A stretch of DNA of 64,000 nt from an uncultured Gemmatimonadales bacterium (GCA_963816355.1 CAWFKH010000005.1:340074-404073); one strand, 5' to 3'; shown: positions 2,990 through 60,226, counted from the first letter of the stretch. Notes: generated from the sequence alone by a model not told the origin. Numbers and translations are program-made.

Positions 2990-3180
2990 GCCTCCCCTCG
3001 CCGAAGGCGAGCTTCCCCGCCGCAGGCGGCCCCCCCGCGCGGAGCGCGGCCCCCGCCGCAGGCGGTTTCCCCGCGCGCAGCGCGGCCCCCCGCCGCAGGC
3101 GGGCTTCCCTCGCGAAGCGAGCTTCCCCGCGCCCAGCGCGGCTTCCCTCGCAACGCGAGCTTCCCTCGCGCAGCGAGCGC
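2990..3180. repeat. tandem hairpin-repeat array (GCGAGCTTCCC / CTCGCGCAGCGAG units), B-orientation member of the GGCGAG-GGAAG-CTCGCC family
   Basis: Direct reading shows repeated palindromic units between the prolyl oligopeptidase stop and the amidase start. The same family occurs at 29.9-31.2 kb and 43.7-44.3 kb. Confidence 0.7.
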
Positions 3181-6908: not shown

Positions 6909-7180
6909 CCGGGGCGCGCATCCAGGCGCGGTCAAGCGCCGTGGCGTGGCCCGGCGGCGTGGCGGCGCGGCCCGGCGGCAGGTGCGCCGCGGCGCGGCCC
7001 GCTCGGCCATGAGAATTCCTTCAGCGCGGCCTCGCGCTCCTCGGATCTGGCCCGGGCGCCGCGGAGCGGCCCGCTTGGCCATGGGAATGCCCCGGCGCGC
7101 CGTGCATCATGGCGTGTCGACGGAGCGGCTGGAGCGCCGTCGCGAGGATGACCGCGAGAGCGTTCGGGAGGTCCGATTCG

Positions 7181-8113
7181 ATGCGCGCCGATGTGGAGCA
7201 GCGGGTTCGCGACGTCGCCGCAAGCCAGCACGGGGTGGTCACCCGCAACCAGCTCGTTCGGGCGGGCCTTTCCTCGGCCGCCATCGGTCGCAAGGTGATG
7301 CGCGGGCAGCTGCAGACGCGCCATCGGGGCGTGTATCAGCTGGGGCCGCTCGCGCTTCCCGGCGCCTCCCACATGGCTGCCGTGCTCGCCGGCGGGCCCG
7401 CCGCAACCCTGAGCCACCTTTCCGCAGCGAGCCTCTCCGGGTTGCGCCCGCGGCCGGACGTCCCGGGGCCGATCCACGTCAGCGTTCCGGGAGCGGGCCG
7501 GAGTCGCAGGCCCGGCATACGCTTCCACCGCGTCGCCCTCGCCGACGACGAGCGGACGATCGTCGACGGCATTCCCATCACGGCACCGGGACGCACGCTC
7601 GTGGACATCGCCGGCATGCTGGGCCGGCGCGAGATCGAGCACGCCGTCGCCTGCGCCGAACGGGAACGCCTCATCGATCACGAGCAGCTCGCCGCGCTTC
7701 CGGAGCGCTACCGCAGCCGTCCCGGCATCGGCCTGTTGCGAGAAGTGACGCAGCGGCTCGCGGAGCCGGCGTTCACGCGCTCCGAGGCGGAGAACCGATG
7801 TCTCGAGATGCTGGACGCCGCCCGGATCCCCCGGCCGCACTCCAACGTGCCGATCGGACCCTACGAGCTGGACCACTTCTGGCCCGTGGAGGGGATCGCC
7901 ATCGAGATCGACGGCCGCGCATACCATTCCGCTCGCGGCCGCTTCGAGGGCGATCGCCGCAAGGATGCATGGCTCCGCGCCCGCGGCATCGAGGTGATCC
8001 GCCTCACCTGGAGGCAGATCACGCGCGAAGCGATGCCCACCGCCGTCCAGATCGGTCAGATCCTCGCTCTCGCCCGGGCCCGCAAAGCCGCGACCCCGCG
8101 GGAGGCGTCGTAG
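7181..8113 (+). CDS. DUF559 endonuclease-like domain protein with AbiEi-type N-terminal domain
   Basis: ORF 7109..8113 has an N-terminal wHTH-like AbiEi_4 region (HGVVTRNQLVRAGLS...). Its C-terminus carries the DUF559/Vsr-like fold motifs (FTRSEAENRCLEML...IEIDGRAYH...DRRKDAWLRARGIEVIRL). The internal ATG is at 7181. Confidence 0.75.
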   Translation: MRADVEQRVRDVAASQHGVVTRNQLVRAGLSSAAIGRKVMRGQLQTRHRGVYQLGPLALPGASHMAAVLAGGPAATLSHLSAASLSGLRPRPDVPGPIHVSVPGAGRSRRPGIRFHRVALADDERTIVDGIPITAPGRTLVDIAGMLGRREIEHAVACAERERLIDHEQLAALPERYRSRPGIGLLREVTQRLAEPAFTRSEAENRCLEMLDAARIPRPHSNVPIGPYELDHFWPVEGIAIEIDGRAYHSARGRFEGDRRKDAWLRARGIEVIRLTWRQITREAMPTAVQIGQILALARARKAATPREAS

Positions 8114-8265
8114 GCGACGTCGTCGCAACGCATTCGCAGGCGACGTCGTCGCAACGCATCGCAGGCGACGTCGTCGCAACGCATCGCAGGCGACGTCGTC
8201 GCAACGCATCGCAGGCGACGTCGTCGCAACGCATCGCAGGCGACGTCGTCGCAACGCCGCATCGG
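8112..8265. repeat. 25-bp tandem repeat x6 (AGGCGACGTCGTCGCAACGCATCGC) with palindromic core CGACGTCG
   Basis: Six near-identical units read directly, starting at the stop codon of the DUF559 gene. Confidence 0.8.
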
Positions 8266-8404
8266 CGCCTGGGGCGCAGGGGCCCAGGGCGTTCAACGCA
8301 AGCGTACCGGCCGGACGAACCCAACCGTTCTCGCGACTCACGGCGAACGGCTGGGATTCGGCCGCGTCGAGGACGGCCCGTGCGAGAAGAATCTCGTAAT
8401 CGGC

Positions 8405-8432
8405 GCCGGTCGGATGCTCGCCATCCGGATTT
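8405..8432 (+). terminator. candidate intrinsic terminator (CGGATG-ctcgc-CATCCG stem-loop followed by GATTTTT)
   Basis: A GC-rich 6-7 bp stem plus a T5 run, which is rare in a 70% GC sequence. It lies inside a low-GC island with no ORF. Confidence 0.35.
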
Positions 8433-8677
8433 TTCTCGGAATCCGGGAAGAATCTCGTAACGAACACCCTGGTCCTGGATCGCAAACGAGATATTGCTCG
8501 ATTTCCGAGACAAAACCGGATAGCGATCCCCGAGACGCCATCCATTACGAGAAATTGCTCACTTCTCGGAGCACGAACCGGCCGAGACGTGCTCGACCTC
8601 GACCGCGAGTCCGGGAAACCCTCGCCCACGGAGGACCACCGCAATGTGTAGCCCGGGCAGAGTGGACGCGCATGCTC

Positions 8678-8808
8678 GGGCGGACGCAAGCGGGGCGGAC
8701 GCATGCTCGGGCGGACGCAAGCCGGGCGGACGCAAGCGGGGCGGACGCAAGCCGGGCGGACGCAAGCGGGGCGGACGCAAGCCGGGCGGACGCAAGCGGG
8801 GCGGACGC
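8678..8808. repeat. 15-bp tandem repeat x~8.5 (GGGCGGACGCAAGCS)
   Basis: Read directly. It is flanked by two copies of GCATGCTCGGGCGGACGCAAG. Confidence 0.75.
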
Positions 8809-8849
8809 CCCGATTGGAGCGCCCGCCCCGCAATCGCTCACCTGCGTTC

Positions 8850-9015
8850 GGCGACGATCGCGCGAGACGGCTCAGCGCACCGCCTGCCCCTCAGCGCATC
8901 GCCCGCAACCTGGGCGACGATCGCGCGAGACGGCTCAGCGCACCGCCTGCCCCTCAGCGCATCGCCCGCAACCTCGGCGACGACGGCGCGAGACGGCTCA
9001 GCGCACCGTCCGCAC
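8850..9015. repeat. 63-bp tandem repeat x~2.6
   Basis: Unit GGCGACGATCGCGCGAGACGGCTCAGCGCACCGCCTGCCCCTCAGCGCATCGCCCGCAACCT is repeated twice, followed by a degenerate partial copy. That partial copy also encodes the last codons of the minus-strand lipoprotein gene. Confidence 0.7.
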
Positions 9016-10008
9016 CTCGACGCGGTTCCCCTGGAAGATCGGGATGAGCACGCGAGACCGCTTCGAGTCCCATCCGATGTCGGCGGGGGATGGCGTACCG
9101 GAGACGGCGGTGGTCGGCGCGCCGCCTCCGGCCGGGATGCGGTAGACAGCCTGGCCGCTCCAGCTCGAGACGAGCAGCGATCCGTCGGGCAGCTTGACGA
9201 CGCCGTCGAGCTGGCCGTGCGGGAGCGCGGTGCCGATCGAGGGTGAGGCGCCGGCCGACGGAGAGGGGTTGGCGCCGACGGCGCTGGCGACGCGCATCAC
9301 CGTGCTGTCGGCGAACGGGACGAGGACGAGCGAGTCGCCGTCGACCAGGACGCCGTTCGGCCCCTTGAGCGCGGCACCGTGCGCGACCGCCTGCGCTCGG
9401 CCGCCGCTGAAGCGGTAGACGGCGTCGGTCCCGGTCGAGCCGAAGCTCGCGTTCAGGCCGCTGTCGGTGACGTAGAGCGTGCCGTCGGGCCCGACGTCGG
9501 CGTCGTTGAGGAAGGTGGCGCCGGGGACGGCCATGGCGCCGAGCGGCGCGCCGGAGTTGCGGTCGAAGGCGCGCACGGAGTCGATGTCGGTGACGAAGAT
9601 CGTGTCGCCGTGGATGGCGAGGCCCTTCGGCGCGTTGAGCGTGACGCTGTCGGAGGCGGCGTCGATCCACTTGAGCGACTCGATCGAGCCGTCCGGCCGC
9701 ACGCGCGAGATGAAGCCGTTGTCGTCGCGGTCGAGCGGCTGGCCGTTGATGTTGGATACGAGGTAGACGTCTGCGACGGAGTCCCACAGCACGGATTCCG
9801 GAGTCTGGAACCCGTCGATCGTGAGTGAATCCGCGGGCGTAGACTCAGCCATCATCGCACCGCCGGCGGTGTCGGCGGCCATGGCGCCACCCGCGCCGCC
9901 CTCGTCGGACGCGCCGCCGCAAGCCGCGAGCGTCGCGATCGAGCCGAGCGCGAGCATGGCCGCGCGAGCGGACGGGCGACCGTGGAAGCTCCGGAGAACC
10001 TCGATCAT
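8998..10008 (-). CDS. lipoprotein with beta-propeller (SMP-30/gluconolactonase/NHL-like) fold
   Basis: ORF 8998..10236 has an internal start MIEVLRSFHGRPSARAAMLALGSIATLAACGG (lipobox LAAC) preceded by GGAGG. It contains repeated ...GPDGTLYVTDSG / ...GDTIFVTD... blades. Confidence 0.6.
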   Translation of the reverse strand: MIEVLRSFHGRPSARAAMLALGSIATLAACGGASDEGGAGGAMAADTAGGAMMAESTPADSLTIDGFQTPESVLWDSVADVYLVSNINGQPLDRDDNGFISRVRPDGSIESLKWIDAASDSVTLNAPKGLAIHGDTIFVTDIDSVRAFDRNSGAPLGAMAVPGATFLNDADVGPDGTLYVTDSGLNASFGSTGTDAVYRFSGGRAQAVAHGAALKGPNGVLVDGDSLVLVPFADSTVMRVASAVGANPSPSAGASPSIGTALPHGQLDGVVKLPDGSLLVSSWSGQAVYRIPAGGGAPTTAVSGTPSPADIGWDSKRSRVLIPIFQGNRVEVRTVR

Positions 10009-10250: not shown

Positions 10251-13200
10251 TCAGAATCTCCAGTCGCGGAAGACGAAGAGGCCGAACACGCCGGTGGTGA
10301 TCGGCGAGCTGAAGCGCACGAGCGACGGCGCGCTGGGCAGGAAGCGCGGCTCGAAGGATACGCGGCCGCCGTAGCCGCCCTGCGTCTTGTACTCGAGCCG
10401 GAGGCCGGGCTGGACGGCGGTGGGACGCACCTGCGCGGAGAGGAAGAGGTCGCTGGTGAGGTACTTCCCCACGTCGAACTCGGTGCCGCGCAGCACGGTG
10501 CCGAAGCCGCCGAGCGAGAGCTCGGGCGGCAGGTCGGCGGGGGTGATGCTGAAGACGTCGAGGCCGAGTCCGCGGGTGGCGTTGCGCTGCGCCTGTCCGA
10601 CGAGCGCGCCGAACGCGACCGTCGTGAGCTGCTGCGTCGCGAGCGCGGCCACGGAGCCGACGAGCTGTCCGCTGCTCGTGCCCTGTCCGGAGAGGGCCGA
10701 GCCCTGCTGCTGCAGCAGGGAGGAGGAGGAGCGGCCGAACGCGAGGTAGCTGATCAGGTCGGACTGCGAGATCGGCGGCTGCGCGTCGCTATCGAGGGAG
10801 ACGCGGAGCTGGTCGAGCGTGCCGCCCACGAGGATGCGGATCTCCAGCGCCTCGCGGCCGGGGAGCTGCACCTGGTGGGCCGCGGTGATCTGCACCTGTG
10901 GATCGACCGGCGTGGTGCCGATGAAGCGGACCGACCCGTTCTTGAGCAGGAATCGACGGCCCATGAAGGTGTAGTCGCCGCGCTCCGTCGCCACCACACC
11001 CCTCAGCTGCAGGCCGCGGCCGCTCGGCGCGTAGTGCACCGCGACGTGGCCGAACTCCTCCGGCGTGTACACCTCGACGTTGGCCGCGCTGGTGCGCACC
11101 CACGTGTCGCGCGCGACGGTCATGTCCACGGCGACATCCAGGTTGCGCAGGAGCGGTGACGCGTAGCGTGGCAGCAGCACGCGCTCCGCCGCGACCGTCG
11201 TGTCCGCGAGCGCGATCAGCGCGGGGTCGTCGTCCGAAATGAGCCGCTGCTGCGTCTGGTCGAGGTAGAGCGTGCCGCCCTCGATGCGGGCGTCGCCGGT
11301 GACGCGCACGGAATCGGGCGGGCCGCGGATCGCGAGGTCGAGATCGGCGCGCAGGCGGCCGTGCTCGTTGTCCAGGACGACGGCCTCGTCCGTCGTGATC
11401 GCGAGGGCGAGGCGCGGATTCGCGAGGGAGGCGAGCCCGATGCCGCCGGTCACACGAACGAGCCCGCCGCCGCTGCGGCCGACGAGCGAGTCGACCGCGA
11501 TCGAATCGCCGGCGAACTCGAGGCGTCCCACGGCGGCGTCCAGGGCGACGCCCAGCGGCTCGATCCGGAAGCCGCCGTGGCCCAGCGTGACCTCGCCGTC
11601 GAGCTTCGGCGCCTGGACCGTTCCGCCGACCTGCACGTCGCCTGCGACGACACCGCGCAGGGCGCTGATGGCGGGGAAGACGTCCGGCAGCCGCTCGAGC
11701 GGCAGGCTGTCGGTGACGATCTCGGCGTCCACGGGCCGGTCGGGCAGCAGCGGGCCGGTGCGGTCCGTGAAGGCGAGGTCGATCGGCATCGTACCGCGGA
11801 GGCGGGCGATGCGCTGCTCGCCCGCGAGGACGGGCGGCGGCGCGGCGCTGTCGGCGAGGTCGAGCGGCGGCCGGCTCCACGCGCCGGCGGTGTCCGCGCG
11901 CGCGGCGAGGCGGGCGGCGACGGTGTCGGCGAGCGGCGTGAAGAGGCCGGCGTCGGCGCGCAGTGTCCGGTCGGCGTAGGCGAAGCGGGCCGACGAGGTC
12001 GGGGAGCGGACGCTCGCCGTAGGCGGCGCCGAGGAGCGTCGCGCTGCCGTCGAAGAGCGGGGCCTGGCGGGTTCCGCGGAGACGCGTGTGGAGCGAGAGC
12101 ATGCCGCGGGCGGGGATCGAGTCCTGGAGCAGGGCGAGGACGTGGCCGACCTGCAGGCGGTCGATCGCGACATCGAGCCGCGACGGGCCCTGCACGGGCA
12201 GGCGGCCGTCGACGTAGATGCGGCCGCCCGCGTCGTCGCGCAGCTCGATCGAGTCGACGGCCACGCCGCGGCCGCGCCACGTGACGGCGCCCGGGTGGGC
12301 GGAGTGCCAGCGGGTGGAGTCGAAGCGGAGCGCGACGTCGTGGAGGCGCACGTCCCGGCGGTCGAGTTGCAGCGTGTAGTCCGCGGCGAGCTCGTAGTCG
12401 CGCAGCGTGTCCTGCCAGATGGCGACCTTGGCAGTGCCCGTGCCGCCGCCCGGGCTGGAGGGGAAGCCGCTCTGCCCCACCTGTGCGTGCACGCTGTCGA
12501 GGGCGAAGCCGAGTGCGAATACGGAGTCGAGCTGCGCGTCCAGCTCGACGCGCTGCGCCGACGTGCTCACGCCGAGCCACGCGTAGTCGAGGTCTCCCGC
12601 CCGCACCGCGTTGCCGGCGATCACGACGCGGTCGAGGCGGGCGCGGCCGTGCAGGTCGAAGCCGTCGAGGCTGCCGGCGAGCGTGCCCTCGGCGCGCAAG
12701 GCGCCGGCGAGGGAGTCCTTCGGCAGGGGTGTCACGGTATCGACGGGCGGCATCGGCGGCGGCGCCTGGTTCGTCGCGGCGCGCGCGACGGCGGTGGCGT
12801 TGGCGATGCGGACCGAGTCGGCGCGGGCGCTCTCGATGCGGGAGCGCGCGATCGCCGGCCGCGGGCTCACCACGCCGGTGTCGCCGGGCAGCCACGCCGC
12901 AAAATCGCGCAGCGAGTCGACGTTCACCACGTAGTGCAGCGTGCCGGTGCGGCCGCCCACGAGGCCGAAGCGGCCGTCGAGCGAGGTGGTGCCGGAGGCG
13001 AGCGCGACGCGCGCGGTGTCGACGACGGCGAGGCCGTCCGCGACCGAGCCGCGCAGCAGGACCGTGTCGACCGCGACACCGCGGGTGGAGAAGCGGGCGA
13101 GGTCCGCGTCGACGTGCGCGTTCATCGTCGCCGGGTCGAAGCCCCGCCCGCGGGCGACGATGCGGCCGGTGAGCGACGCCGCCGGCGCGCGTTCGGACAG

Positions 13201-28159: not shown

Positions 28160-29524
28160 CTACAGCTTCACGACGTTCTCCGCCTCCGGTCCCTTGCGCG
28201 CGTCGACCCGCGTGAACTCGACGCGGTCGCCCTCGTCCAGCGTGCGGAAGCCCTCGCCGACGATCGCCGTGTAGTGGACGAAGCAATCGTCACCGCCATC
28301 CTCGGGGGTGACGAAGCCGAACCCCTTCGAGTCGCTGAACCACTTGACCGTTCCGCCGATCCGCGGCCCGGCGGCGGCGGCGGTCGCGGCGTCCGACGCG
28401 GTCTGCCGCACGCGCGGCCCTTCCCCCGCGTCGGATCCCTTCGACGACGCCGGCGCCGATTCCGCTTCGCCGCCCGAGCGCCCGCTATCCGAACGCCCGC
28501 CGCCCGAACGCCCGCCGCCCGAACGCCCGCCGCCCGAACGCCGGCCGCCACCGCGCCCGCCACCGCCCGTGCCATCGCCGCCACCGCGCCCGCCACGGGC
28601 GTCGCCATCGCCACCGTCGGTGCCGCCGCCGCGCCCGCCGCGGGCGCTGCCGGCGCCGGCCATCTCGGGCGACGACGTCGCCTCGATCCACTCCGGGCGC
28701 TGCGCGGCCCGCCGCGCCAGCTCGCCCACCGCGTCGCTCCGGGCGGAGGCGATGATCACCGTCTGGCGCGACGCCGGCAGCGCCGCCAGGACGGGATCGA
28801 GATCGCGGGCGGAGGAGCCGAGGCGATCCGCGTCGTCGACGACGAGCACCTCGACCTCGGTCAGGTCGAGGTCGCCCGAGCCGAGGAGCTCGGCGGCGCG
28901 CGTCGGCGTGGTCACCAGCAGATCGAAGCCCGCGCGCAGGTCGCGGAGCTGACGCTCCGGCGGCACCCCCGCGTGCAGGAGGCCGATCCACAGGTGCGTC
29001 TCGCCGGCGAGGGCCTCCGCTTCAGCGCCCACGGCGGCGACGGCGGCGTCGCCCGGGCAGAGGATCAGCGTGCGCAGCCCCTCCCTCCCGACCTGCCGCT
29101 CCACGACCGGCAGCATGTAGGCGCCGGTCTTGCCGGCGCCGGCGGGCGCGATGACCACGACGTCGTGGCCAGCGCCGATCTGCGGCGTGGCCGCCGACTG
29201 CACCGGCGTCGGCCGCGACCACCCGCGCGCCTCGAGCGCCTCACGCAGCGGCGCTGACGACGTCAGCTCCTCGAAGCTGCGGCGCTGCGGTACGCGCGGC
29301 GCTTCCGACTCCGGCGGCGTCGCGGTCCGCAGCTTCGGCGCCGCCGCCCCGGCCGCGCCGCGCCGCCGCCGGAGGAGCGCATACAGCACGGCCGCGCCCA
29401 CGAAGGCGACGACGACGAGCGTCCAGATCAGCGGCTGCCAGCCGAAACTATCCAAGGGCTCCCTTCCGCTCCCTTCCCAACGGACCGCATGCTCGTAACG
29501 ATCCGCACCTCCGCGAGGCATCAT
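28160..29524 (-). CDS. membrane-anchored DEAD-box helicase domain-1-like / RGG-rich / cold-shock domain protein
   Basis: It has an N-terminal TM helix ([23 protein letters not shown]), then the Q motif, Walker A (AGAGKTGAY), TPTR, VVDDAD and SAR, with no helicase domain 2. A (GGRGG)n linker follows, then a C-terminal CspA-like domain ([31 protein letters not shown]). A TTG at about 29455, preceded by AAGGGAG, is an alternative start. Confidence 0.7.
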
Positions 29525-29677
29525 TCTGGACGGCGCCGACGACGACTGTCAAGCGAGGAGGCCGGCACGCCATCGCGCGCCGGCCTCTCGCATTGTCCCG
29601 GACGTCGGCCCGGGAGCCGATCGGCCGGCGCTACGCCCGGCCGGTCGCGTCGCGGCCACCGAGCCGCGGCGAGCGCC

Positions 29678-29866
29678 TCAGTGGCGCAGCAGGAACCAGG
29701 CACCCACCGGCACCGCGAGCGCGGCCGCGGCGAGACCGGCCGTCTGCGTCCGGCTCAGGTTGTGGTACGCCGTATAGGCGACCGCCCCCTTCACGGGATG
29801 CTTCAACATGAACGTCGCCTTCGGCGCCTTCGTGTATCCGATCAAGGTCCCGATCTTCCTCAACAT
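29678..29866 (-). CDS. hypothetical small membrane protein (62 aa)
   Basis: It sits in a lower-GC stretch, with GGAGG 2-3 nt upstream of the ATG. The sequence MLRKIGTLIGYTKAPKATFMLKHPVKGAVAYTAYHNLSRTQTAGLAAAALAVPVGAWFLLRH has a C-terminal TM segment. Confidence 0.3.
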   Translation of the reverse strand: MLRKIGTLIGYTKAPKATFMLKHPVKGAVAYTAYHNLSRTQTAGLAAAALAVPVGAWFLLRH

Positions 29867-29929
29867 GCGCTATCCTCCCGGTCAACGGACACCAGATTGT
29901 GATGGGATGCAATGCAAGGGACGCGCCGG

Positions 29930-30375
29930 GGGCTCGCCTTCGGCGAGGGAAGCTCGCCTGGCGGCGAAGGAAGCTCGCCTGCGGCGAGGGAAGCCCGCCT
30001 GCGGCGGGGGAAGCCGCCTCCGGCGGGGGCCGGCTGCGCCGGGGAGGCTCGCCTGACGGCGAGGGAAGCTCGCCTCCGGCGGGGGCCGGCTGCGCCGGGG
30101 AGGCTCGCCTGACGGCGAGGGAAGCTCGCCTGCGGCGAGGGCCGGCTGCGCCGGGGAAGCCCGCCTGACGGCGGGGGAAGCCGCCTGCGGCGGGGGCCGG
30201 CTGCGCCGGGGAAGCCCGCCTGGCGGCGGGGGAAGCCCGCCTCCGGCGGGGGCCGGCTGCGCCGGGGAGGCTCGCCTGACGGCGAGGGAAGCCGCCTCCG
30301 GCGGGGGCCGGCTGCGCCGGGGAGGCTCGCCTGACGGCGAGGGAAGCTCGCCTCCGGCGGGGGGCCGCCTGCGGG
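29930..30375. repeat. tandem hairpin-repeat array, A orientation (units GGCGAGGGAAGCTCGCC and the 32-nt nested variant, organised in ~57-bp higher-order repeats x6-7)
   Basis: Read directly. Each unit is a 6-bp stem with a GGAAG loop, and the longer unit nests a CCGGC..GCCGG hairpin. Confidence 0.8.
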
Positions 30376-30384
30376 TCTTTCAGG

Positions 30385-30816
30385 TCAGGGGCGATCCGAG
30401 GAGGCCCGACGTTGCATGGCGCGGCAGTGGTGGACGAGCACTATGCCGAGACGGCGCGCGGCGGCCCGGCACGGGGCGAGCGACTCGGCGGGCTCGATGC
30501 CTTTGATCGCGAGCAGCGCCAATGCGTTCTCCGCTTCGGAGACGGAGCGGCGGGCGATTCGGTAGATGCGTGCCTTTTCCGCCGGCCGATACTCACCGAT
30601 CGCTTCGCCCACGTTCAGGACCGCCGAATCGACCGCCCGATCGAGCTGGTCGCTCAACGCGGGCCACGATCGCCTCACCCGATTGACGATCGGCAACGCC
30701 GCCGCCGCGAATCCCTCGGCCAGCCGCCGCACGGCAAGCCCCTCATACTCAGCGCCCAAACCCTCCTCCTCTCCGTCCGTCATCACAACATCCACTCCCT
30801 GCCCGGCCAGATCCAT
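30385..30816 (-). CDS. four-helix-bundle protein (TIGR02436 / 23S rRNA intervening-sequence protein / Avd-like family)
   Basis: The C-terminal 143 aa of ORF 30385..32376 align to the family consensus (WPALSDQLDRAVDSAVLNVGEAIGEY...KARIYRIARRSVSEAENALALLAIKGI versus FPKEE.YGLTSQIRRSAISIPSNIAEGYGR...EFVHFLYIALGSATELDTQLIIACELGYI). An alternative ATG lies at 30783. Confidence 0.75.
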   Translation of the reverse strand: MDLAGQGVDVVMTDGEEEGLGAEYEGLAVRRLAEGFAAAALPIVNRVRRSWPALSDQLDRAVDSAVLNVGEAIGEYRPAEKARIYRIARRSVSEAENALALLAIKGIEPAESLAPCRAAARRLGIVLVHHCRAMQRRASSDRP

Positions 30817-30837
30817 GTCCCCGTGAGCCCTAACCAA

Positions 30838-31195
30838 GGCGGTTTGCCCCGGCGCAGCCGGCCCCTCGCCGCCAGGCGAGCTTCCCCGGCGCAGCCGGCC
30901 CCTCGCCGAAGGCGAGCTCCCCCGGCGCAGCCGGCCCCTCGCCGAAGGCGAGCTCCCCCTCGCGAAGCGAGCTTCCCTCGCCGAAGGCGAGCTCCCCCGG
31001 CGCAGCCGGCCCCTCGCCGAAGGCGAGCTCCCCCTCGCGAAGCGAGCTTCCCTCGCCGAAGGCGAGCTCCCCCGGCGCAGCCGGCCCCTCGCCGAAGGCG
31101 AGCTTCCCTCGCGAAGCGAGCTTCCCTCGCCGCCAGGCGAGCTTCCCCGGCGCAGCCGGCTTCCCTCGCCGCAGGCGAGCGCTCCGCGCTTGCGC
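30838..31195. repeat. tandem hairpin-repeat array, B orientation (reverse complement of the 29930-30375 array)
   Basis: Units AGGCGAGCTTCCCTCGCC and CCGGCGCAGCCGGCCCCTCGCC are the reverse complements of the A-array units. Confidence 0.8.
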
Positions 31196-31260
31196 CACCC
31201 GCCCGCCTCCCTCATCATCGCCACCCCGGGCCGGACCGACCCACGACGGAGCAGCCCATC

Positions 31261-32400
31261 ATGCGCGTGATCCTCCTCGGCGCGGGCCGCGTCGGCGCTG
31301 CCATCGCCCGCGACCTGGCGGACGACGACGCCTTCGACCTGAGCGTCGCCGACGCCGACGCGAGCGCGCTCGAGCCGATCGCGCGCGCCGGCGTGCGCGT
31401 GGTCGCGGCCGATCTCTCCCGGCCCGGCGCCATCGCCGACGTGACGGCCGGCCACGACCTGGTCGTCTGCGCCGTGCCGGGCCCGATCGGTTTCGAGACG
31501 GTGCGGAGCGCGCTCGAGGCCGGCCACGACGTCGTCGACATCTCGTTCTTCGAGGAGGACGCGTTCGAGCTCGACGCGCTCGCGCGCGAGCGGGGCTGCA
31601 CGGCGATCGTCGACTGCGGCGTCGCGCCCGGCTTCAGCAACCTCGTGCTCGGGCACCTCGAGGCCACGCTCGAGACGACGGCGCGTTTCCGCTGCGTCGT
31701 GGGCGGGCTGCCGCGCGTGCGCCGCTGGCCGTACGAGTACCGGGCGCCGTTCTCGCCGATCGACGTGCTGGCCGAGTACACGCGGCCGGCCCGGCTGCGC
31801 CGCGGCGGGCGCGAGGTGGTGTTGCCGGCGCTGTCCGAGGTCGAGCTCGTGGACTTCGACGGCGTCGGCACGCTGGAGGCGTTCAACACGGACGGCCTGC
31901 GCACCCTGCTCCGCACCGCGCGCACGCCGGAGCTGGCGGAGAAGACGCTCCGCTACCCCGGCCACGCCGACCGCATGCGGATGCTGCGCGACAGCGGCTT
32001 TTTCGACGCCGCGGCGATCGACGTCGCGGGCACGCCGGTGCGGCCGCTCGACGTGACGGCGCGGCTGCTCTTCGAGGCGTGGCGGTTCGAGCCGGGCGAG
32101 GCGGACCTGACCGTGATGCGCATCGAGGTGGATGGGACGGAGGCCGGCGAGCCGGTGCGCCACACCTGGGAGCTGCTCGATCGGTACGACGACGCCACCG
32201 CCACGCTGTCGATGGCGCGCACGACCGGCTACACCTGCACCGCCGTCGTCCGCCTGCTGGAGCGCGGGCTCTACCGGCGGCCCGGCGTCTCGCCGCCCGA
32301 ATACGTCGGTGCGCAGCCCGGCTGCTTCGAGTTCGTCGTCGAGCGGCTGGCGGAACGTGGCGTCGCCTGGCGCCACACGCGGACGAGTCCGCCGGCCTGA
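31261..32400 (+). CDS. saccharopine dehydrogenase NADP-binding domain protein
   Basis: It has the Rossmann motif MRVILLGAGRVGAAIARDLADDD. The ATG at 31261 is in frame in ORF 30412..32400. Confidence 0.85.
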   Translation: MRVILLGAGRVGAAIARDLADDDAFDLSVADADASALEPIARAGVRVVAADLSRPGAIADVTAGHDLVVCAVPGPIGFETVRSALEAGHDVVDISFFEEDAFELDALARERGCTAIVDCGVAPGFSNLVLGHLEATLETTARFRCVVGGLPRVRRWPYEYRAPFSPIDVLAEYTRPARLRRGGREVVLPALSEVELVDFDGVGTLEAFNTDGLRTLLRTARTPELAEKTLRYPGHADRMRMLRDSGFFDAAAIDVAGTPVRPLDVTARLLFEAWRFEPGEADLTVMRIEVDGTEAGEPVRHTWELLDRYDDATATLSMARTTGYTCTAVVRLLERGLYRRPGVSPPEYVGAQPGCFEFVVERLAERGVAWRHTRTSPPA

Positions 32401-34061: not shown

Positions 34062-35368
34062 GCATGCGCAGCGATGGATCTCTTGCGGGCACCGCGGGCG
34101 CCGGCGCCACGGGCGACACGGGCGTGGGCACTGCGGGCGCCACGGGCGCCGCGGGCGTAGGCCCTGCGGGCGCCGCGGGCGTAGGCCCTGCGGGCGCCGC
34201 GGGTGTTGGCCCTGCGGGCGCCGCGCGCGTTGGCGCGCGCGTCTTTCGCGCCGTTGGGGCGGTGCTCCTCGTCGGGCCGCTGGCGGGCGCCTGCGGCCGG
34301 CAGCCGCAGCGCGGCGCGGCGCCGGTCCCCGTCACGGTCGCGGTCGCGGAACGGCGCGCCGCGCCGTTCACGATCACCGCCAACGGCGTCGTGGAGCCGC
34401 TGCAGACGGTGGCGGTGGAGCCGCAGGTCAACGGGATCGTCACGAGCGTCGATTTCGCCGAGGGCGACGATGTGCGCGCGGGGCAGCCGCTGTTCCACAT
34501 CGATGCGCGCCCGTACGAGGCCGCGCTGCAGCAGGCGGAGGCGACGCTCGCCAGGGACGCGGCGCAGGCGGAGAACTCGCGTCGCGACGCCGAGCGCTAC
34601 CGCACGCTGGTGAAGCAGGACTACGTCACGCAGGCGCAGGCGGACCAGGCGGCCGCCACGGCGGTGGCGCAGGCGGCCGCCGTCAAGGCGGACAGCGCCG
34701 CGGTGCGGACGGCGCGGCTGAACCTCGCCTACACGGTGATCCGCGCGCCGATCGCCGGGCGCACCGGCTCGCTGCTCGTGCACGAGGGCAACGTGGCCAG
34801 GGCGACTGGCTCGCCGCTCGTCGTGATCAACCAGATCCGGCCGATCCTGGTGCGCTTCCCCGTCGCCGCGCGCGACTTCCCGGAGGTACAGCGGCACGCG
34901 GCAGGCCGCGCGCTGCCGGTCTCCGTCGCCGTCGCCGAAGGCGACCAGGGCGACCCGATCACCGGCGAGCTCAGCTTCGTCGACAACGCCGTCGACCCGC
35001 AGACCGGCACGGTGCTGCTCAAGGCGCGCTTCGCCAACGAGCGGAGCCTGCTGTGGCCGGGAGAATACGTCACGGCGAGCCTGCAGCTCTACGTCGAGCA
35101 GGGCGCCATCGTGGTGCCGGCGTCGGCGATCATCGTGACGCAGACCGGCAGCTCGGTGTTCGTCGTGGACTCGGCGGAGGTCGCGCACCAGCGCGACATC
35201 ACGCCCGGCCGCCCGCTCGCCGACCAGGTGATCGTCGCGGCTGGCGTGCAGGCGGGCGAGCGCGTGGTCACCGACGGACAGTCGCGCCTCGCCGACGGGG
35301 ACCGCGTCGTCATCCGCACCGTGCCCGCCGCCGCGCCGGGCGCGACGGAGGAAGGCGCGGCGCGATGA
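34058..35368 (+). CDS. efflux RND transporter periplasmic adaptor subunit (MFP)
   Basis: It has the motifs AcrA-like barrel-sandwich/lipoyl (GIVTSVDFAEGDDVRAGQPLFHID...VIRAPIAGRTG). The N-terminus is a Gly/Ala-rich repeat encoded by the 24-bp DNA tandem repeat, before a lipobox (LAGAC). ATGA overlaps with the OMF gene upstream and the RND gene downstream. Confidence 0.8.
   Translation: MSMRSDGSLAGTAGAGATGDTGVGTAGATGAAGVGPAGAAGVGPAGAAGVGPAGAARVGARVFRAVGAVLLVGPLAGACGRQPQRGAAPVPVTVAVAERRAAPFTITANGVVEPLQTVAVEPQVNGIVTSVDFAEGDDVRAGQPLFHIDARPYEAALQQAEATLARDAAQAENSRRDAERYRTLVKQDYVTQAQADQAAATAVAQAAAVKADSAAVRTARLNLAYTVIRAPIAGRTGSLLVHEGNVARATGSPLVVINQIRPILVRFPVAARDFPEVQRHAAGRALPVSVAVAEGDQGDPITGELSFVDNAVDPQTGTVLLKARFANERSLLWPGEYVTASLQLYVEQGAIVVPASAIIVTQTGSSVFVVDSAEVAHQRDITPGRPLADQVIVAAGVQAGERVVTDGQSRLADGDRVVIRTVPAAAPGATEEGAAR
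34100..34235. repeat. 24-bp tandem repeat x~4 (GGGCGCCGCGGGCGTAGGCCCTGC) inside the 5' end of the MFP gene
   Basis: Read directly. In frame it encodes AGVGPAGAAGVGPAGAAGVGPAG. Confidence 0.6.
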
Positions 35369-38300
35369 GCATCGCGGGCCTCTTCATCCGCAGGCCGGTG
35401 ATGACGACGCTCGTCATGCTGGCCATCCTCTTCTTCGGCATCATGTCGTACCGCCGCCTGCCGGTGAGCGACCTGCCGAACGTCGACTATCCGACGATCT
35501 CCGTCTCGGCATCGCTCCCGGGTGCGAGCCCGGAGACGATGGCGGCCGCCGTCGCGACGCCGCTCGAGAAGCAGTTCTCGACGATCGCGGGCATCGACAA
35601 CATGACGTCGAGCAGCGGCGTCGGCTCGACCAACATCACGCTGCAGTTCTCGCTCGACCGCGACATCGACGCCGCCGCGCAGGACGTCCAGGCCGCGATC
35701 TCGAAAACGCTGCGCCAGCTGCCGCGCGACATCGTCCCGCCCTCGTACCAGAAGGTGAATCCGGCCGACGCGCCGATCATGTACATGGCGCTGACCACGG
35801 ACGTCATGCCGCTCTCGCAGCTCGACGAGTACGCCGAGACGGTGCTCGCGCAGCGCATCTCGACCGTCGCCGGCGTCGCCTCCGTAAACGTGTTCGGCTC
35901 CGCGAAGTACGCCGTCCGCGTCGAGCTCGACCCCGCCGCGCTCGCGGACCGCGGCATCGGCATCGACGAGGTCGCCGGCGGCATCGCGAGCGGCAACGTG
36001 AACCTGCCTTCCGGCGTGCTGTGGGGGCCCGAACGCGCCTACACCGTGCAGGCGAGCGGGCAGCTCCACGACGCCGCCGCGTTCCGCGACCTCGTCGTCG
36101 CCTACCGCAACGGCGCCCCCGTCCATCTGCGCGACGTCGGCCAGATCAAGGACGACGTGCAGGACGACAAGTCGGCGAGCTGGTACGACGGCAGCCGCTC
36201 GATCGTGCTCGCGGTGCAGCGGCAGCCGGGCACCAACACCGTCGCCGTCGCGCGCGCGGTGCGCTCGATGGTCGACCGGCTGCAGGCGCAGATCCCGCCG
36301 GGCGTCCACATCCACAACCTGTACGACCGCTCGGAGTCGATCGGCGAGTCGGTGCGCGACGTCAAGTTCACGCTGCTCCTGACCCTCGCCCTCGTGGTGA
36401 TGGTCATCTTCCTCTTCCTGCGCAACGTCTCGGCGACGGTCATCCCGAGCCTCGCGCTGCCGATGTCGCTCGTCGGCACGTTCGCCGTGATGTACCTGCT
36501 CGGCTACAGCCTCGACAACCTCTCGCTCATGGCGCTCACGCTCGCCGTCGGCTTCGTCGTCGACGACGCGATCGTCATGCTCGAGAACGTCGTGCGCCAC
36601 ATGGAGATGGGGAAGCCGCCGATGCAGGCGGCGCTCGACGGCGCCCGCGAGATCGGCTTCACCATCGTCTCGATGACGCTGTCGCTCACCGCCGTCTTCA
36701 TCCCGATCCTCTTCATGGGCGGCATCATCGGCCGCCTCTTCCACGAGTTCGCCGTCACGATCGGCGCGGCGATCCTCGTCTCCGGATTCGTCTCGCTCAC
36801 GCTCACGCCGATGCTCGGCAGCCGCTTCCTGAAGCGGCAGAGCACGGAGCGCCACGGCCGCTTCTACCAGGCGACGGAGCGCGCCTACGAGCGTCTGCTC
36901 GGCTTCTACGAGCGCACGCTCGCCGGCGTGATGCGGCACCGGCGCGCGACGATGGCCTTCTCCGCCGCCATCCTCGTCGCGACCGTCGTGCTCTTCCTCC
37001 TCGTTCCCAAGGGATTCCTGCCCAGCGAGGACTCCGGCCGCATCTCCGTCACCACCGAGTTCGCCCAGGGCACGTCCTTCGACGCGATGCTGCGACACCA
37101 GCAGGAGGTCGCCGCCGTCGTGGCGAAGGACCCCAACGTCGCGGACTTCATGTCCTCGATCGGAGGCGGCCGCGGCACCGGCAACCAGGGCCGCATGTTC
37201 CTCCACCTCAGGGCGCGCGCCGAGCGCGTCTCCGCCGACGAGGTGATCCGCGAGCTGACGCCCAAGCTGAACGCGTTCCCCGGCGTGCGCGTCTTCATGC
37301 AGAACCCGCCGCCGATCCGCATCGGCGGCCGCACCTCCAAGTCGCTCTACCAGTTCACGCTGCAGGGCGCCGACATCGCCACGCTCTACGCCGAGTCGGA
37401 CCGCCTGCTGGACCGGATGAAGCGGATCCCGCAGATCGTCGAGGTGACGAGCGACCTGCAGATCGGCAACCCGCAGGTGGACGTGCAGATCGACCGCGAG
37501 CGCGCCGCCTCCCTCGGCGTCACCGCGCAGCAGGTCGAGAGCGCGCTCTACGACGCCTACGGCGCGCGCCAGGTCTCCACCATCTACACGCCGAACAACG
37601 AATACTGGGTCGTGATGGGCCTGCAGCCGCAGTACCAGCAGGACCTCGCCGCACTCAACCTGCTCTACATCCGCTCGCAGAACGGCGCGCTCGTACCGCT
37701 CAACTCCGTCGCCTCGCTGAGCAAAAGCCTGGGACCGCTCACCGTCAACCACTCCGGGCAGCTCCCTTCCGTCACGCTGTCGTTCGACGTCGCGCCCGGC
37801 GCTTCGCTCAGCGACGCGACTGCGGCGATCCAGCGCGCGGCGCGCGAGGTTCTGCCGTCGGCGATCACGACCGCCTTCTCCGGCACCGCGCAGGCGTACC
37901 AGGACACGCAGCAGGGGCTGCTCTTCCTGCTCCTCATGGCGATCTTCGTCATCTACGTCGTGCTCGGCATCCTCTACGAGAGCTTCATCCACCCGCTCAC
38001 GATCCTTTCCGGGCTGCCGTTCGCCGCCTTCGGTGCGCTCCTCACGCTCCTGCTCACGCGCACCGAGCTCGACGTCTACGCCTTCGTCGGCGTCATCATG
38101 CTCGTCGGGCTCGTCAAGAAGAACGCGATCATGATGATCGACTTCGCGCTCGACGCGGAGCGCAACGAGGGGAAGCCCGCGCGCGAGGCGATCCTGCAGG
38201 CGTGCAGCATCCGGTTCCGCCCGATCATGATGACGACGATGGCGGCGCTCATGGCCGCGCTCCCGATCGCGCTCGGCACCGGCGCCGGCGCCGAGGCGCG

Positions 38301-38499
38301 CCGCCCGCTCGGCATCGCCGTCGTCGGCGGGCTCGCCTTCTCGCAGGTGATCACGCTCTACGTGACGCCCGTCGTCTACACCTACCTCGACGCGTTCCAG
38401 CACCGCGCCGGCCGCCGCTTCACGCGGCGCCGCGGCGCCGCCGGCGAGGAGCGGGAGCGGCCGCACTGGCAGCCGCAGCCGGTCGCCGCCGGCGAGTAG
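35365..38499 (+). CDS. efflux RND transporter permease subunit (AcrB/HAE1 family)
   Basis: A 1044-aa, 12-TM protein with a typical N-terminus MSIAGLFIRRPVMTTLVMLAILFFG. It occupies the downstream part of ORF 33496..38499. Confidence 0.92.
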   Translation: MSIAGLFIRRPVMTTLVMLAILFFGIMSYRRLPVSDLPNVDYPTISVSASLPGASPETMAAAVATPLEKQFSTIAGIDNMTSSSGVGSTNITLQFSLDRDIDAAAQDVQAAISKTLRQLPRDIVPPSYQKVNPADAPIMYMALTTDVMPLSQLDEYAETVLAQRISTVAGVASVNVFGSAKYAVRVELDPAALADRGIGIDEVAGGIASGNVNLPSGVLWGPERAYTVQASGQLHDAAAFRDLVVAYRNGAPVHLRDVGQIKDDVQDDKSASWYDGSRSIVLAVQRQPGTNTVAVARAVRSMVDRLQAQIPPGVHIHNLYDRSESIGESVRDVKFTLLLTLALVVMVIFLFLRNVSATVIPSLALPMSLVGTFAVMYLLGYSLDNLSLMALTLAVGFVVDDAIVMLENVVRHMEMGKPPMQAALDGAREIGFTIVSMTLSLTAVFIPILFMGGIIGRLFHEFAVTIGAAILVSGFVSLTLTPMLGSRFLKRQSTERHGRFYQATERAYERLLGFYERTLAGVMRHRRATMAFSAAILVATVVLFLLVPKGFLPSEDSGRISVTTEFAQGTSFDAMLRHQQEVAAVVAKDPNVADFMSSIGGGRGTGNQGRMFLHLRARAERVSADEVIRELTPKLNAFPGVRVFMQNPPPIRIGGRTSKSLYQFTLQGADIATLYAESDRLLDRMKRIPQIVEVTSDLQIGNPQVDVQIDRERAASLGVTAQQVESALYDAYGARQVSTIYTPNNEYWVVMGLQPQYQQDLAALNLLYIRSQNGALVPLNSVASLSKSLGPLTVNHSGQLPSVTLSFDVAPGASLSDATAAIQRAAREVLPSAITTAFSGTAQAYQDTQQGLLFLLLMAIFVIYVVLGILYESFIHPLTILSGLPFAAFGALLTLLLTRTELDVYAFVGVIMLVGLVKKNAIMMIDFALDAERNEGKPAREAILQACSIRFRPIMMTTMAALMAALPIALGTGAGAEARRPLGIAVVGGLAFSQVITLYVTPVVYTYLDAFQHRAGRRFTRRRGAAGEERERPHWQPQPVAAGE

Positions 38500-38664
38500 C
38501 TCGCGCGGCCGGCGCGCGCCGACCACGACCACGCGGCCGTCCGCGCCGACCATGCGGCCGCCGCGCGCGGACCGTGCGGCCGCGGCGCGCGCATCCTATC
38601 TTGGACATCGGTACCCCTGTGCCGGCTATCCAACGTCACGTCCCCTCCGACGAGGAGCCCGACG

Positions 38665-39216
38665 ATGAGCGGACTGCTGCTGCTCGCCCTCCTTCTCGTG
38701 CTGATCGTGCTGTGGGCGATCGTCATGTACAACCGGCTCGTGTCGCTGCGCGTGCGCGCGGACAACGCGTGGTCCGACATCGACGTCCAGCTCAAGCGGC
38801 GCCACGACCTCGTACCCAACCTCGTCGAGACCGTGAAGGGCTACGCCGGCCACGAGCGCGGCACCCTCGAGGCGGTCGTCAACGCGCGCAGCGCCGCCAT
38901 GAGCGCGACCGGCCCCGCCGAGCAGGCGAAGGCCGAGAACGTGCTGACCGGCGCGCTGAAGTCGCTCTTCGCCCTCTCGGAGAACTACCCGCAGCTGCGC
39001 GCCGTCGAGTCCTTCACCAGCCTGCAGCAGTCGCTGCAACACCTCGAGGAGTCGATCCAGAGCGCCCGCCGCTACTACAACGCGGTCGTGCGCGACCTGA
39101 ACACCCGCATCGCGCAGGTCCCGTCGAACCTCGTCGCGGACACCTTCGGCTTCAAGCCGCGCGAGTTCTTCGAGACCGGCGACGAGGAGCGCGAGACCCC
39201 CAAGGTCCAGTTCTGA
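38665..39216 (+). CDS. lemA: LemA family protein
   Basis: An N-terminal TM helix followed by the LemA domain (YNRLVSLRVRADNAWSDIDVQLKRRHDLVPNLVETVKGYAGHE). Confidence 0.85.
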   Translation: MSGLLLLALLLVLIVLWAIVMYNRLVSLRVRADNAWSDIDVQLKRRHDLVPNLVETVKGYAGHERGTLEAVVNARSAAMSATGPAEQAKAENVLTGALKSLFALSENYPQLRAVESFTSLQQSLQHLEESIQSARRYYNAVVRDLNTRIAQVPSNLVADTFGFKPREFFETGDEERETPKVQF

Positions 39217-43669: not shown

Positions 43670-44280
43670 AAGGCGCTCGCCTGGCGGCGAGGGAAGCTCG
43701 CCTGGCGGCGAGGGAAGCTCGCCTGGCGGCGAGGGAAGCTCGCCTGCGGCGAGGGGAGCTCGCCTGCGGCGAGGGCCTCGCCTGGCGGCGTGGGAAGCTC
43801 GCCTGCGGCGAGGGCCCGGGCTCGCGCCGGGGGAAGCTCGCCTGCGGCGAGGGTCGCGCGTCGGCCGGCCTCCCTCGCGCAGCGAGCTTCCCCCGCGCAG
43901 CGGGCCCCGGCGCAGCCGGCCTCCCTCGCGCAGCGAGCTTCCCCCGCGCAGCGGGCCCCGGCGAAGCCGGCCTCCCTCGCGCAGCGAGCTTCCCCCGCGC
44001 AGCGGGCCCCGGCGCAGCCGGCCTCCCTCGCGCAGCGAGCTTCCCCCGCGCAGCGGGCCCCCGGCGAAGCCGGCCTCCCTCGCGCAGCGAGCTTCCCCCG
44101 CGCAGCGGGCCCCGGCGCAGCCGGCCTCCCTCGCGCAGCGAGCTTCCCTCGCGCAGCGGGCTTCCCCTGCAGAGCAGGTCCCCGGCGAAGCCGGCTTCCC
44201 TCGCGCAGCGAGCTTCCCCGGCGGAGCCGGCTTCCCTCGCGCAGCAAGCTTCCCTCGCGCAAGCGAGCGCCACGCGCAGC
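43670..44280. repeat. composite palindromic hairpin-repeat array: A-orientation units (43670-43860) abutting B-orientation ~57-bp units x5-6 (43870-44280)
   Basis: The left half is GGCGAGGGAAGCTCGCCTG units. The right half is CCTCCCTCGCGCAGCGAGCTTCCCCCGCGCAGCGGGCCCCGGCGCAGCCGG units, which is the same family as 29930-31195 but with no gene between the halves. Confidence 0.8.
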
Positions 44281-44315
44281 GAGCTCTCAACGTTCTCCCC
44301 AACCAGGGCGTCATT

Positions 44316-55667: not shown

Positions 55668-55851
55668 GGGGGTGGGGAGGCGCGAGGACTTGGGGCGGCG
55701 GGGACGGGACGGTACAGGGCGCGGCGTACCCCGGACCGGTCTGGGGTCTGCGGAGGGGGTCTGGGGAGGGTCTGGGGTACGAGGGTCTGCGGGGGGTGTG
55801 GGGTACGGGGGTCTGCGGGGGTCTGGGGTACGGGGGTCTGGGGGGGCTGCC
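55668..55851. repeat. G-rich tandem repeat block (GGGTCTGGGG / TACGGGGGTCTGCGGGGG units), left copy of an inverted-repeat pair
   Basis: Read directly. Its reverse complement recurs at 60055-60226, including the identical 27-mer CGGTCTGGGGTCTGCGGAGGGGGTCTG. Confidence 0.75.
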
Positions 55852-60054: not shown

Positions 60055-60226
60055 TCCCCCGCCGTTCCTCCGTCCCCCAGACCCCCGTCCCCCAGACCCC
60101 CCCAGACCCCCCCCGTACCCCAGACCCCCCGCAGACCCCCTCCGCAGACCCCAGACCGCTCCCCTCCCACCCGTCCCTGTCCCCACCCCTGCCTCTCCAC
60201 CACCAACCCCCCTAAATTCCCCCCCC
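60055..60226. repeat. C-rich (minus-strand G-rich) tandem repeat block, right copy of the inverted-repeat pair
   Basis: It is the reverse complement of the 55668-55851 block. It lies in the divergent arfB/dinB intergenic region. Confidence 0.75.

Follow-up and report, generated by a model that had tools for sequence, protein, structure and literature searches.

What keeps the two arms of a short hairpin complementary when the sequence of the arms differs from one copy to the next, and why should more than twenty such hairpins stand in a row beside a small gene? Both questions are raised by array A2, which lies in a window of 64 kb (the whole stretch of DNA that was analysed; 73% G+C). The first-pass annotation of this locus had reported base changes in the 5' arms of the hairpins accompanied by matching changes in the 3' arms, and had drawn from them conclusions about selection, about the origin of the repeats and about their function. 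We followed these conclusions through the arrays, the gene beside A2 and related loci in other genomes.

Five arrays of one hairpin family

Hairpin parsing of the 64-kb window revealed five arrays of a single hairpin family, where the first-pass annotation had counted four, with a total of about 83 units (Table 1); no isolated units were found in the window outside these arrays. Tandem Repeats Finder placed A2 at 29923–30373 with periods of 56, 111 and 167 nt, and further arrays gave periods of 36 and 75 nt and of 51 and 103 nt. Each unit was 15–21 nt long and consisted of a purine spacer, a 5–6-bp stem built almost solely of G and C, and a 3–4-nt loop beginning with T. The spacers, which separate one unit from the next by 2–6 nt, were GGAAG, GGAGG or GG/GGG, with GGAAG as the constant unpaired motif of the units; the loops were TGC, TCC, TTC, TGAC or TGGC. 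In all five arrays, every unit was arranged head-to-tail within its own array.

Table 1. Positions of the hairpin arrays and of the gene module in the window. For arrays, the strand given is the GGAAG-sense strand.
Feature	Position	Strand	Description
Array A1	2994..3178	-	About 11 units, solitary; same unit family as A2
Array A2	29923..30375	+	23 head-to-tail hairpin units; 56-nt three-unit blocks; downstream arm of the putative cassette
Four-helix-bundle gene	30385..30816	-	143 aa, PF05635; intact at family-invariant residues
Array A3	30847..31180	-	18 hairpin units; 75-nt four-unit blocks; upstream arm of the putative cassette, inverted relative to A2
Whole module (A2, four-helix-bundle gene, A3)	29923..31180		1.26 kb
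Array A4	43675..43853	+	About 9 units, CTCGCC stem in nearly all
Array A5	43864..44285	-	About 24 units; 51-nt three-unit blocks (CTCGC, CCGGC, CCCGC); inverted relative to A4

All five arrays were intergenic. A1 fills the gap between two co-directional genes, an S9 peptidase gene with its stop codon at 3181 and an amidase gene starting at 2968, and begins 3 nt past the stop; A2 likewise starts 11 nt past a stop codon. A4 and A5 stand head to head, separated by about 10 nt that contain no gene, and are flanked by a divergent 76-aa gene on one side and the gene of an ECF sigma factor on the other. A3, A4 and A5 are located upstream of divergently transcribed genes and not downstream of any gene. 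Degenerate units were present at several array ends (in A5, for example, they are the first three), and none of the array boundaries showed a recognisable target-site duplication. The higher-order blocks of 51, 56 and 75 nt marked the units as copies by descent, and blocks of two to four units are gained and lost by slippage or unequal exchange. Since it is by these very processes that the arrays grew, as the blocks show, the earlier argument against slippage fails.

Three other identities for the arrays were rejected. They are not coding, since they lack the frame-specific third-position GC (GC3) signal seen in their neighbours and their unit length varies; they are not a CRISPR array, as the units abut with a constant 2–6-nt spacer and there are no unique spacers; and a fold-back artefact of assembly was rejected because paired arrays differ in unit composition. 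No Rfam family, rRNA included, was found in the window at the gathering threshold. When a genome collection was scanned with the loose pattern GGAAGCYCGCCNNNGGCGRGGG, at least 115 single chance matches were obtained, with no array among the matches listed, and a two-unit pattern scan of a metagenome collection gave 10 loci, all of them chance matches in coding DNA. Elsewhere in the window, further inverted arrays at 55743–55846 and 60070–60157 surround one or more unrelated genes.

Base pairing in the hairpin stems

Perfect stems were found in about 75 of the roughly 83 units, and only about 8 units carried a single mismatch. The eight stem sequences were all perfect palindromes: CTCGCC/GGCGAG (24 copies), CCGGC/GCCGG (19), CTCGC/GCGAG (11), CCCGCC/GGCGGG (5), CCGCC/GGCGG (5), CCCGC/GCGGG (5), CCGCGC/GCGCGG (3) and CCTGC/GCAGG (1). 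About 98% of stem pairs were complementary, even though stem sequences vary about as much as the loops and spacers do and the chance of complementarity at the observed base composition is 0.30 per pair. Among distinct units, 21 of 27 were perfect; when the 3' arms were dealt randomly among units of equal arm length, a procedure that ignores the kinship of the units, the mean was 6.3 and the maximum 16, and not one of 10,000 shuffles reached 21. Chains of adjacent hairpins in the window ran to 22, 18, 16 and 10 units, whereas the longest chain in 937 kb of other high-GC DNA had 5.

To count covariation we used the gapless class of 5-bp stems and a custom parser, since MAFFT mis-registers units of unequal loop length. 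Both sides changed in three of the five pairs of this class (C:G/U:A; C:G/G:C/U:A; G:C/C:G), and the covariation score was 0.51, against 0.16 in shuffled sets (none of 500 reached the observed value) and 0.03–0.18 when the partner column was slid. As shuffles and slid partners all gave lower values, pairing is more common than expected by chance, and the report of paired variation among the units holds.

The register in which pairing is conserved is stem-TGC-stem, with the spacer and the closing C:G pairs constant and the inner stem positions variable. The register proposed earlier, GGCGAG-GGAAG-CTCGCC, in which GGCGAG pairs across the spacer with the CTCGCC of the next unit, works at only about one third of junctions because neighbouring units usually differ in stem. 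Two other details of the first reading have to be given up. The combination GGCGGG..GCCGCC, listed there as compensatory, arises because CCGCC is CCCGCC minus one C of the 5' arm with the 3' side (GGCGGGGG) unchanged, which makes it a one-sided, stem-shortening deletion, and the CCGGC-TGC-GCCGG stem, described as nested, is actually a separate unit in series. Mismatched units were of six kinds, two with G.T (on the GGAA strand), two with C.A and two with T.T; they show no strand bias, and so point to neither a functional strand nor a level, RNA or DNA, at which the hairpin acts. The unit CTCGCC-tcc-GGCGGG, which contains a G.U pair, is present twice as part of a duplicated segment. Since units have been copied in blocks of 51–75 nt, the independent compensatory events behind these counts are few, by our estimate roughly four to six.

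Single units were predicted to fold into stable hairpins, with energies of −6 to −12 kcal/mol as RNA and about −6 kcal/mol as DNA. Compared with shuffled sequences, A2 alone gave z = −1.07 for the plus strand and z = −4.4 for the minus strand. Any such GC-rich sequence folds well, so that fold energies are uninformative for single units and for the plus strand of A2; the evidence for pairing is therefore the pair counts and not the energy.

The best independent support for the proposal that pairing rather than sequence is kept came from a second hairpin family of the same design in L132, a Longimicrobiales relative, where an inverted pair of arrays surrounds a DUF6174 gene. In that family the spacer is constant (TCCGAGGGGGTC), the stems are variable and perfect (GCGGCGC, AGGGCGC, GGCGCC, GGGGCC), and the loops are TGC, TGGC, TTC or TTT. 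These results support the conclusion that the units keep base pairing and not primary sequence. Paired changes can, however, arise without selection by hairpin-templated (quasi-palindrome) correction, for which the hairpin must form and need not be useful. Of the earlier claim of selection on structure, the part that stands is that pairing is kept over sequence; selection itself is unproven, as templated correction gives the same pattern. Covariation thus shows that the hairpin matters and does not separate the two processes. The arrays are a clean case, found in nature, of repeats that conserve pairing alone, and a family of this kind should be useful for separating structural selection from hairpin-templated mutation.

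A PF05635 gene enclosed by inverted arrays

The gene between A2 and A3 encodes a small helical bundle without a catalytic motif. Its product matched PF05635, the 23S-rRNA intervening-sequence protein family, with 36.3 bits against a cut-off of 33.8, and its family profile matched PDB 2GSC with E 2.4e-17; there were 571 homologues at E ≤ 1e-3, of which the closest were 41–44% identical. GC3 was about 0.8 in this gene compared with about 0.95 in its neighbours. The stop codon of the gene lies 11 nt from the end of A2 and its ATG 30 nt from the end of A3, and segments of 40–45 nt in the two arrays are 95–96% complementary. No second copy or remnant of the gene was found in the window, including next to A1 or A4/A5; nor did the roughly 55 ORFs of the window include a transposase, a RAYT (REP-associated tyrosine transposase), a Y1 transposase, a recombinase or a nuclease. 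Avd of the diversity-generating retroelements belongs to the same four-helix-bundle superfamily (PMC10053308); the window differs from an Avd system in having no reverse transcriptase, template or variable repeats.

The neighbours of the module are a 62-aa gene and a gene for saccharopine dehydrogenase. Homologues of the dehydrogenase place this region in Gemmatimonadota, near Longimicrobiales, with the closest 69% identical. The order found in the window, a DEAD-box/cold-shock-domain helicase, a 62/63-aa gene and the saccharopine dehydrogenase, was also found in two relatives, L116 and L128, in which the spacer is 165 and 147 nt long, respectively, and contains neither arrays nor a four-helix-bundle gene. 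The spacer of the window minus the module is 136 nt, and a GTGCAAT-like motif at the left boundary of the module is common to the window and the relatives. From these short, module-free spacers and the boundary motif we concluded that the 1.26-kb module is an insertion.

The same enclosure was found at other PF05635 genes. Five further loci were chosen by similarity or by the length of the contig, blind to their flanks, so that with the window the sample covered Gemmatimonadota, Planctomycetota and metagenome contigs; at all six loci the PF05635 gene was hugged by inverted arms of short tandem repeats. The arms differ from one locus to another. In L132, (AGGCTG)5.5 lies upstream of the gene and (CTCAGC)7.7 (CAGCCT repeats) downstream; both a Planctomycetes metagenome-assembled genome (L133) and a metagenome contig (L134; ENA, ERZ795105) have (GTGCCC)n upstream and (GGGCAC)n downstream, and the proteins of these two loci are 66% identical. 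A second metagenome contig (L130; Logan, ERR8482621) has arms of 55 nt that are 89% complementary and contain internal sub-repeats, and a third (L131; NCBI, GCA_036706575.1) has nine 14-nt units, GCCTCGYAGTCTCT, past the stop codon of the gene, with their complement at the start of the contig. A flank-to-flank inverted-match score of at least 20 was reached at five of the six four-helix-bundle loci, the sixth being L131, which is cut off by the contig end, and by only 2 of 116 other genes at the same loci. One of these two control genes resembles an insertion sequence. The inverted-arm architecture therefore appears to be general for this gene family. No relative of the four-helix-bundle clade of the window was found among the plasmids and viral contigs searched. 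A literature search, of limited coverage and thus not proof of novelty, gave no description of PF05635 genes outside rRNA that are bracketed by tandem-repeat arms.

A gene inside a stem-loop is a layout known from rRNA intervening sequences, and it is found here between ordinary genes. S23p (PF05635) ORFs occur in 23S rRNA intervening sequences of Coxiella, Leptospira, Brucella and Xanthomonas. In the Coxiella element, terminal inverted repeats close a loop that holds the S23p ORF, and the stem they form is cut by RNase III (PMC4990558). The module in the window shares with these elements the ORF family, the enclosing, stem-forming terminal inverted repeats and the appearance of an insertion or selfish element. 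It differs from them in three respects: the known sequences lie inside the 23S rRNA gene, at helix 25 or 45, whereas the module lies between protein-coding genes; its arms are 335–450 nt of tandem hairpin units instead of a unique stem of about 28 bp; and its array family also occurs without the gene. The module is consequently a full member of neither the intervening-sequence family, whose 23S rRNA location it lacks, nor the REP/BIME family considered below. Folding predictions agreed with the enclosed layout: in the predicted RNA minimum-free-energy structure of the module (−1004.7 kcal/mol), A3 pairs with A2 around the ORF, and the arms of L132 and L134 are predicted to close around their ORFs in the same way (z = −6.0 and −6.2, respectively).

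We give about an even chance to the reading that A2 is the stem-forming arm of an intervening-sequence-like PF05635 cassette, built from a REP/BIME-like hairpin satellite. In such a cassette, a transcript crossing the module would be expected from the modelled folds to form either stacks of local hairpins or an arm-arm duplex of several hundred bp with the ORF in the loop. By analogy with the rRNA elements, the duplex might act as a signal for insulation or for processing of the RNase III type and so uncouple the cassette from flanking host transcripts, and this could render an insertion between two divergent promoters harmless. Stem complementarity would be kept because the strand must fold as RNA, as single-stranded DNA, or as both, and its upkeep may be due to selection, to hairpin-templated correction, or to the two together. 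The gene-free arrays A1 and A4/A5 would then be derivatives of the cassette system or substrates for it.

Several observations speak against A2 as the arm of a cassette. Arm-arm pairing alone needs no palindromic units, and local hairpins compete with it. Arrays of the same family are present without the gene in A1 and A4/A5, and other inverted arrays surround unrelated genes, both in the window and at the DUF6174 gene of L132, so that the arrays may be primary and the gene a passenger. In addition, the orientation of the arrays relative to flanking transcription is not constant, and the mismatched units are free of strand bias.

If the reading of A2 as a cassette arm were extended to the whole gene family, PF05635 genes with inverted arms might form an undescribed class of gene plus cognate repeat, analogous to RAYT-REPIN, in which a nucleic-acid-binding pentamer recognises or depends on the fold-back of the arms, gene-free arrays (A1, A4/A5 and the pairs of L116) are non-autonomous derivatives that the protein spreads or maintains, and rRNA intervening sequences are the special case of cassettes that landed in rRNA; the architecture would be conserved and the arms would vary from lineage to lineage. 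We offer this extension as a speculative one, on balance unlikely to be right. To our knowledge, neither the PF05635/S23p proteins nor the origin of the intervening sequences in rRNA has found an explanation since the early 1990s. Free-standing PF05635 copies abound, with "four helix bundle protein" as their only annotation. Should these genes prove to be enclosed by arms in general, the layout of the intervening sequences would be a property of the gene cassette and not of rRNA, and one could test directly how the cassette moves, how it is processed and what it does.

Other readings of the arrays

The arrays might instead be a REP/BIME-like element that is useful to the host and unrelated to the four-helix-bundle gene, which would have landed in, or been tolerated in, the middle of a head-to-head pair that already existed, such as A4/A5. 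Stacks of hairpins could block 3'-to-5' exonucleases, insulate transcription units or modulate supercoiling. The resemblance to REPs and BIMEs is considerable: the units are short, GC-rich extragenic stem-loops, clustered, with complementary stem changes and often past stop codons, as are A1 and A2 in the window and the arrays of L116 and L132, which begin directly past stops. Head-to-head pairs without a gene exist (A4/A5 and L116), a protein gene can be flanked by inverted repeats in REP systems as well, and REPs, which show complementary stem changes, are known targets into which other elements insert (PMC3733652). The units also differ from REPs. REPs carry GTAG or CGTC tags and favour head-to-head or tail-to-tail dimers, with head-to-tail dimers rare (PMC3733652); in the window, GTAG, CTAC and CGTC were absent from all five arrays, GACG occurred only within TGAC loops, and the arrays were strictly head-to-tail and organised in higher-order blocks. 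For want of a tag and because of this arrangement, the units are not REPs proper. They are also 15–21 nt long compared with 20–40 nt for REPs, which are dispersed through a genome in tens to thousands of copies (the 64 kb analysed here hold the five arrays with their roughly 83 units), and the bracketed gene encodes a four-helix-bundle protein and not a transposase, with no RAYT within the 64-kb window. Against a host function independent of the gene, chance landing does not predict that six of six loci across phyla should have inverted arms made of differing units; moreover, three of the five arrays in the window lie upstream of divergent genes and not in 3' untranslated regions, and A1 and A2 are not oriented alike with respect to the transcript. 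We therefore consider a host-useful element unlikely, though worth keeping in mind.

A neutral or selfish satellite without selected structure is somewhat less likely still. Palindromes promote slippage, and template switching could copy a change from one arm into the other (quasi-palindrome correction), which would produce seemingly compensatory changes by mechanism alone. Higher-order blocks are typical of satellites that evolve by unequal exchange, and the degenerate units at array ends fit the same picture, as does the absence of the family from the matches listed in the pattern scans of other organisms, which fits fast turnover. Few independent compensatory events are required, as there are three variable pair columns, and the C:G to G:C double transversions that separate CCGCC and CCCGC from CCGGC are not easily obtained from two point mutations arising independently. 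Templated correction, established in E. coli, is here a candidate mechanism only. A satellite of this kind would also leave two features unexplained, namely the constancy of the spacer and closing pairs beside a variable inner stem, and the inverted arms specific to PF05635 genes.

It is improbable, in our judgement, that a structure-specific DNA enzyme recognises the hairpins and mobilises or processes them, be it a nuclease or recombinase, as the first-pass annotation suggested, or a tyrosine transposase of the RAYT/IS200-like kind. A protein that reads structure would tolerate a free stem sequence beside constant single-stranded parts, here the GGAAG spacer and the T-initial loop, and a gene flanked by its own inverted repeats recalls the REPtrons (PMC3733652). 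The expected tags and enzymes were lacking, however, both in the arrays (GTAG or CGTC) and among the roughly 55 ORFs of the window (Y1 transposase, recombinase or nuclease); the strictly head-to-tail order is one that REPs rarely adopt, and the flanked gene has no catalytic motif.

The suggestion of a terminator or attenuator stack, made in the first-pass annotation, can be set aside as very improbable: it has been proposed that high-GC bacteria use clusters of GC-rich hairpins without a U-tract as terminators (PMC8355165), and A1 and A2 do follow stop codons directly with such hairpins, but no site with a hairpin followed by a T-run was found in 29500–31400, as many as 23 hairpins far exceed the needs of termination, three of the five arrays (A3, A4 and A5) are downstream of no gene and lie between divergently transcribed genes, the arrays form inverted pairs, and neither a leader peptide nor the alternative-pairing logic of an attenuator was present.

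The head-to-head pairs without a gene can also be compared with MITEs and foldback elements such as BOX, Correia and ERIC. They differ from these in that their arms are tandem arrays, with no target-site duplication or defined termini found and no known cognate transposase. The likeness lies in the overall shape, since A4/A5 and the L116 pairs are intergenic inverted arms that can form one long hairpin, and A4/A5 are predicted to fold in this way with z = −3.6. The L116 arrays are built of 13–14-nt units and lie directly past two stop codons, and their units resemble those flanking the four-helix-bundle gene of L131.

Spacer motif and neighboring gene at the insertion site

A GTGCAAT-like motif was conserved in three genomes, lying at 29890-29922 in the window and at 9885-9905 and ~9895 in the syntenic relatives L116 and L128, respectively, and in each it occupied the spacer between the 62-aa and saccharopine dehydrogenase genes. 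It could serve as a promoter or an operator. In the window the array module, comprising two inverted hairpin arrays and the PF05635 four-helix-bundle gene, starts directly after it. Nearby on the minus strand (28160-29524), a DEAD-box helicase and a C-terminal cold-shock domain are encoded as one fused gene, a fusion also kept in L116 and L128; the window copy contains an arginine/glycine-rich coding repeat at 28468-28612, found by Tandem Repeats Finder.

Repeats in related loci

L116, the nearest syntenic relative, carries inverted, head-to-head arrays of 13-14-nt units at 1-244 and 11131-11315, positioned immediately 3′ of two stop codons and with no gene between the arms. These units are similar to those beside the four-helix-bundle gene of the metagenome contig L131. 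In L132, a Longimicrobiales relative, inverted arrays at 948-1129 and 1812-1985 enclose a DUF6174 gene, and each begins at a neighboring gene's stop codon. In their 29-30-nt hairpin units the spacer (TCCGAGGGGGTC) is constant, the stem varies but is perfect, and the loop is TGC, TGGC or TTC. Downstream of the four-helix-bundle gene of the Planctomycetes genome L133, the (GGGCAC)n block occurs three times (1873-2200) as part of a larger repeat of ~150 nt (GGGCACGTGAAGAGCTTCGCCGGGAGCGGGGCG...).

Only two control genes were flanked by inverted repeats. One of them, at L116 12128-13393 (score 21), gave a weak HTH_32 match and is probably an insertion sequence.

Other features of the window

Three more intergenic tandem arrays, with unrelated units, are listed below; the first begins at the stop codon that ends an AbiEi/DUF559-like gene (7109-8113), and an island of lower GC lies amid the three at ~8380-8620.

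Further tandem arrays in the window
Position	Unit (nt)	Copies	Internal hairpin
8108-8257	25	6	GCGAC-gtc-GTCGC
8677-8808	15	8.7	
8848-9008	63	2.6	

GC3-based gene calling at 35368-38665, which lies downstream of OEP and HlyD, yielded only small minus-strand ORFs of odd composition with no Pfam match; this stretch probably contains a large plus-strand transporter gene. Farther along, an inverted pair encloses TauE, LTXXQ, PAP2, and amino-acid permease genes: a G-rich array (GGGGTCTG...) at 55743-55846 and, ~4.2 kb away, the reverse complement of that array at 60070-60157. These arrays might form G-quadruplexes.
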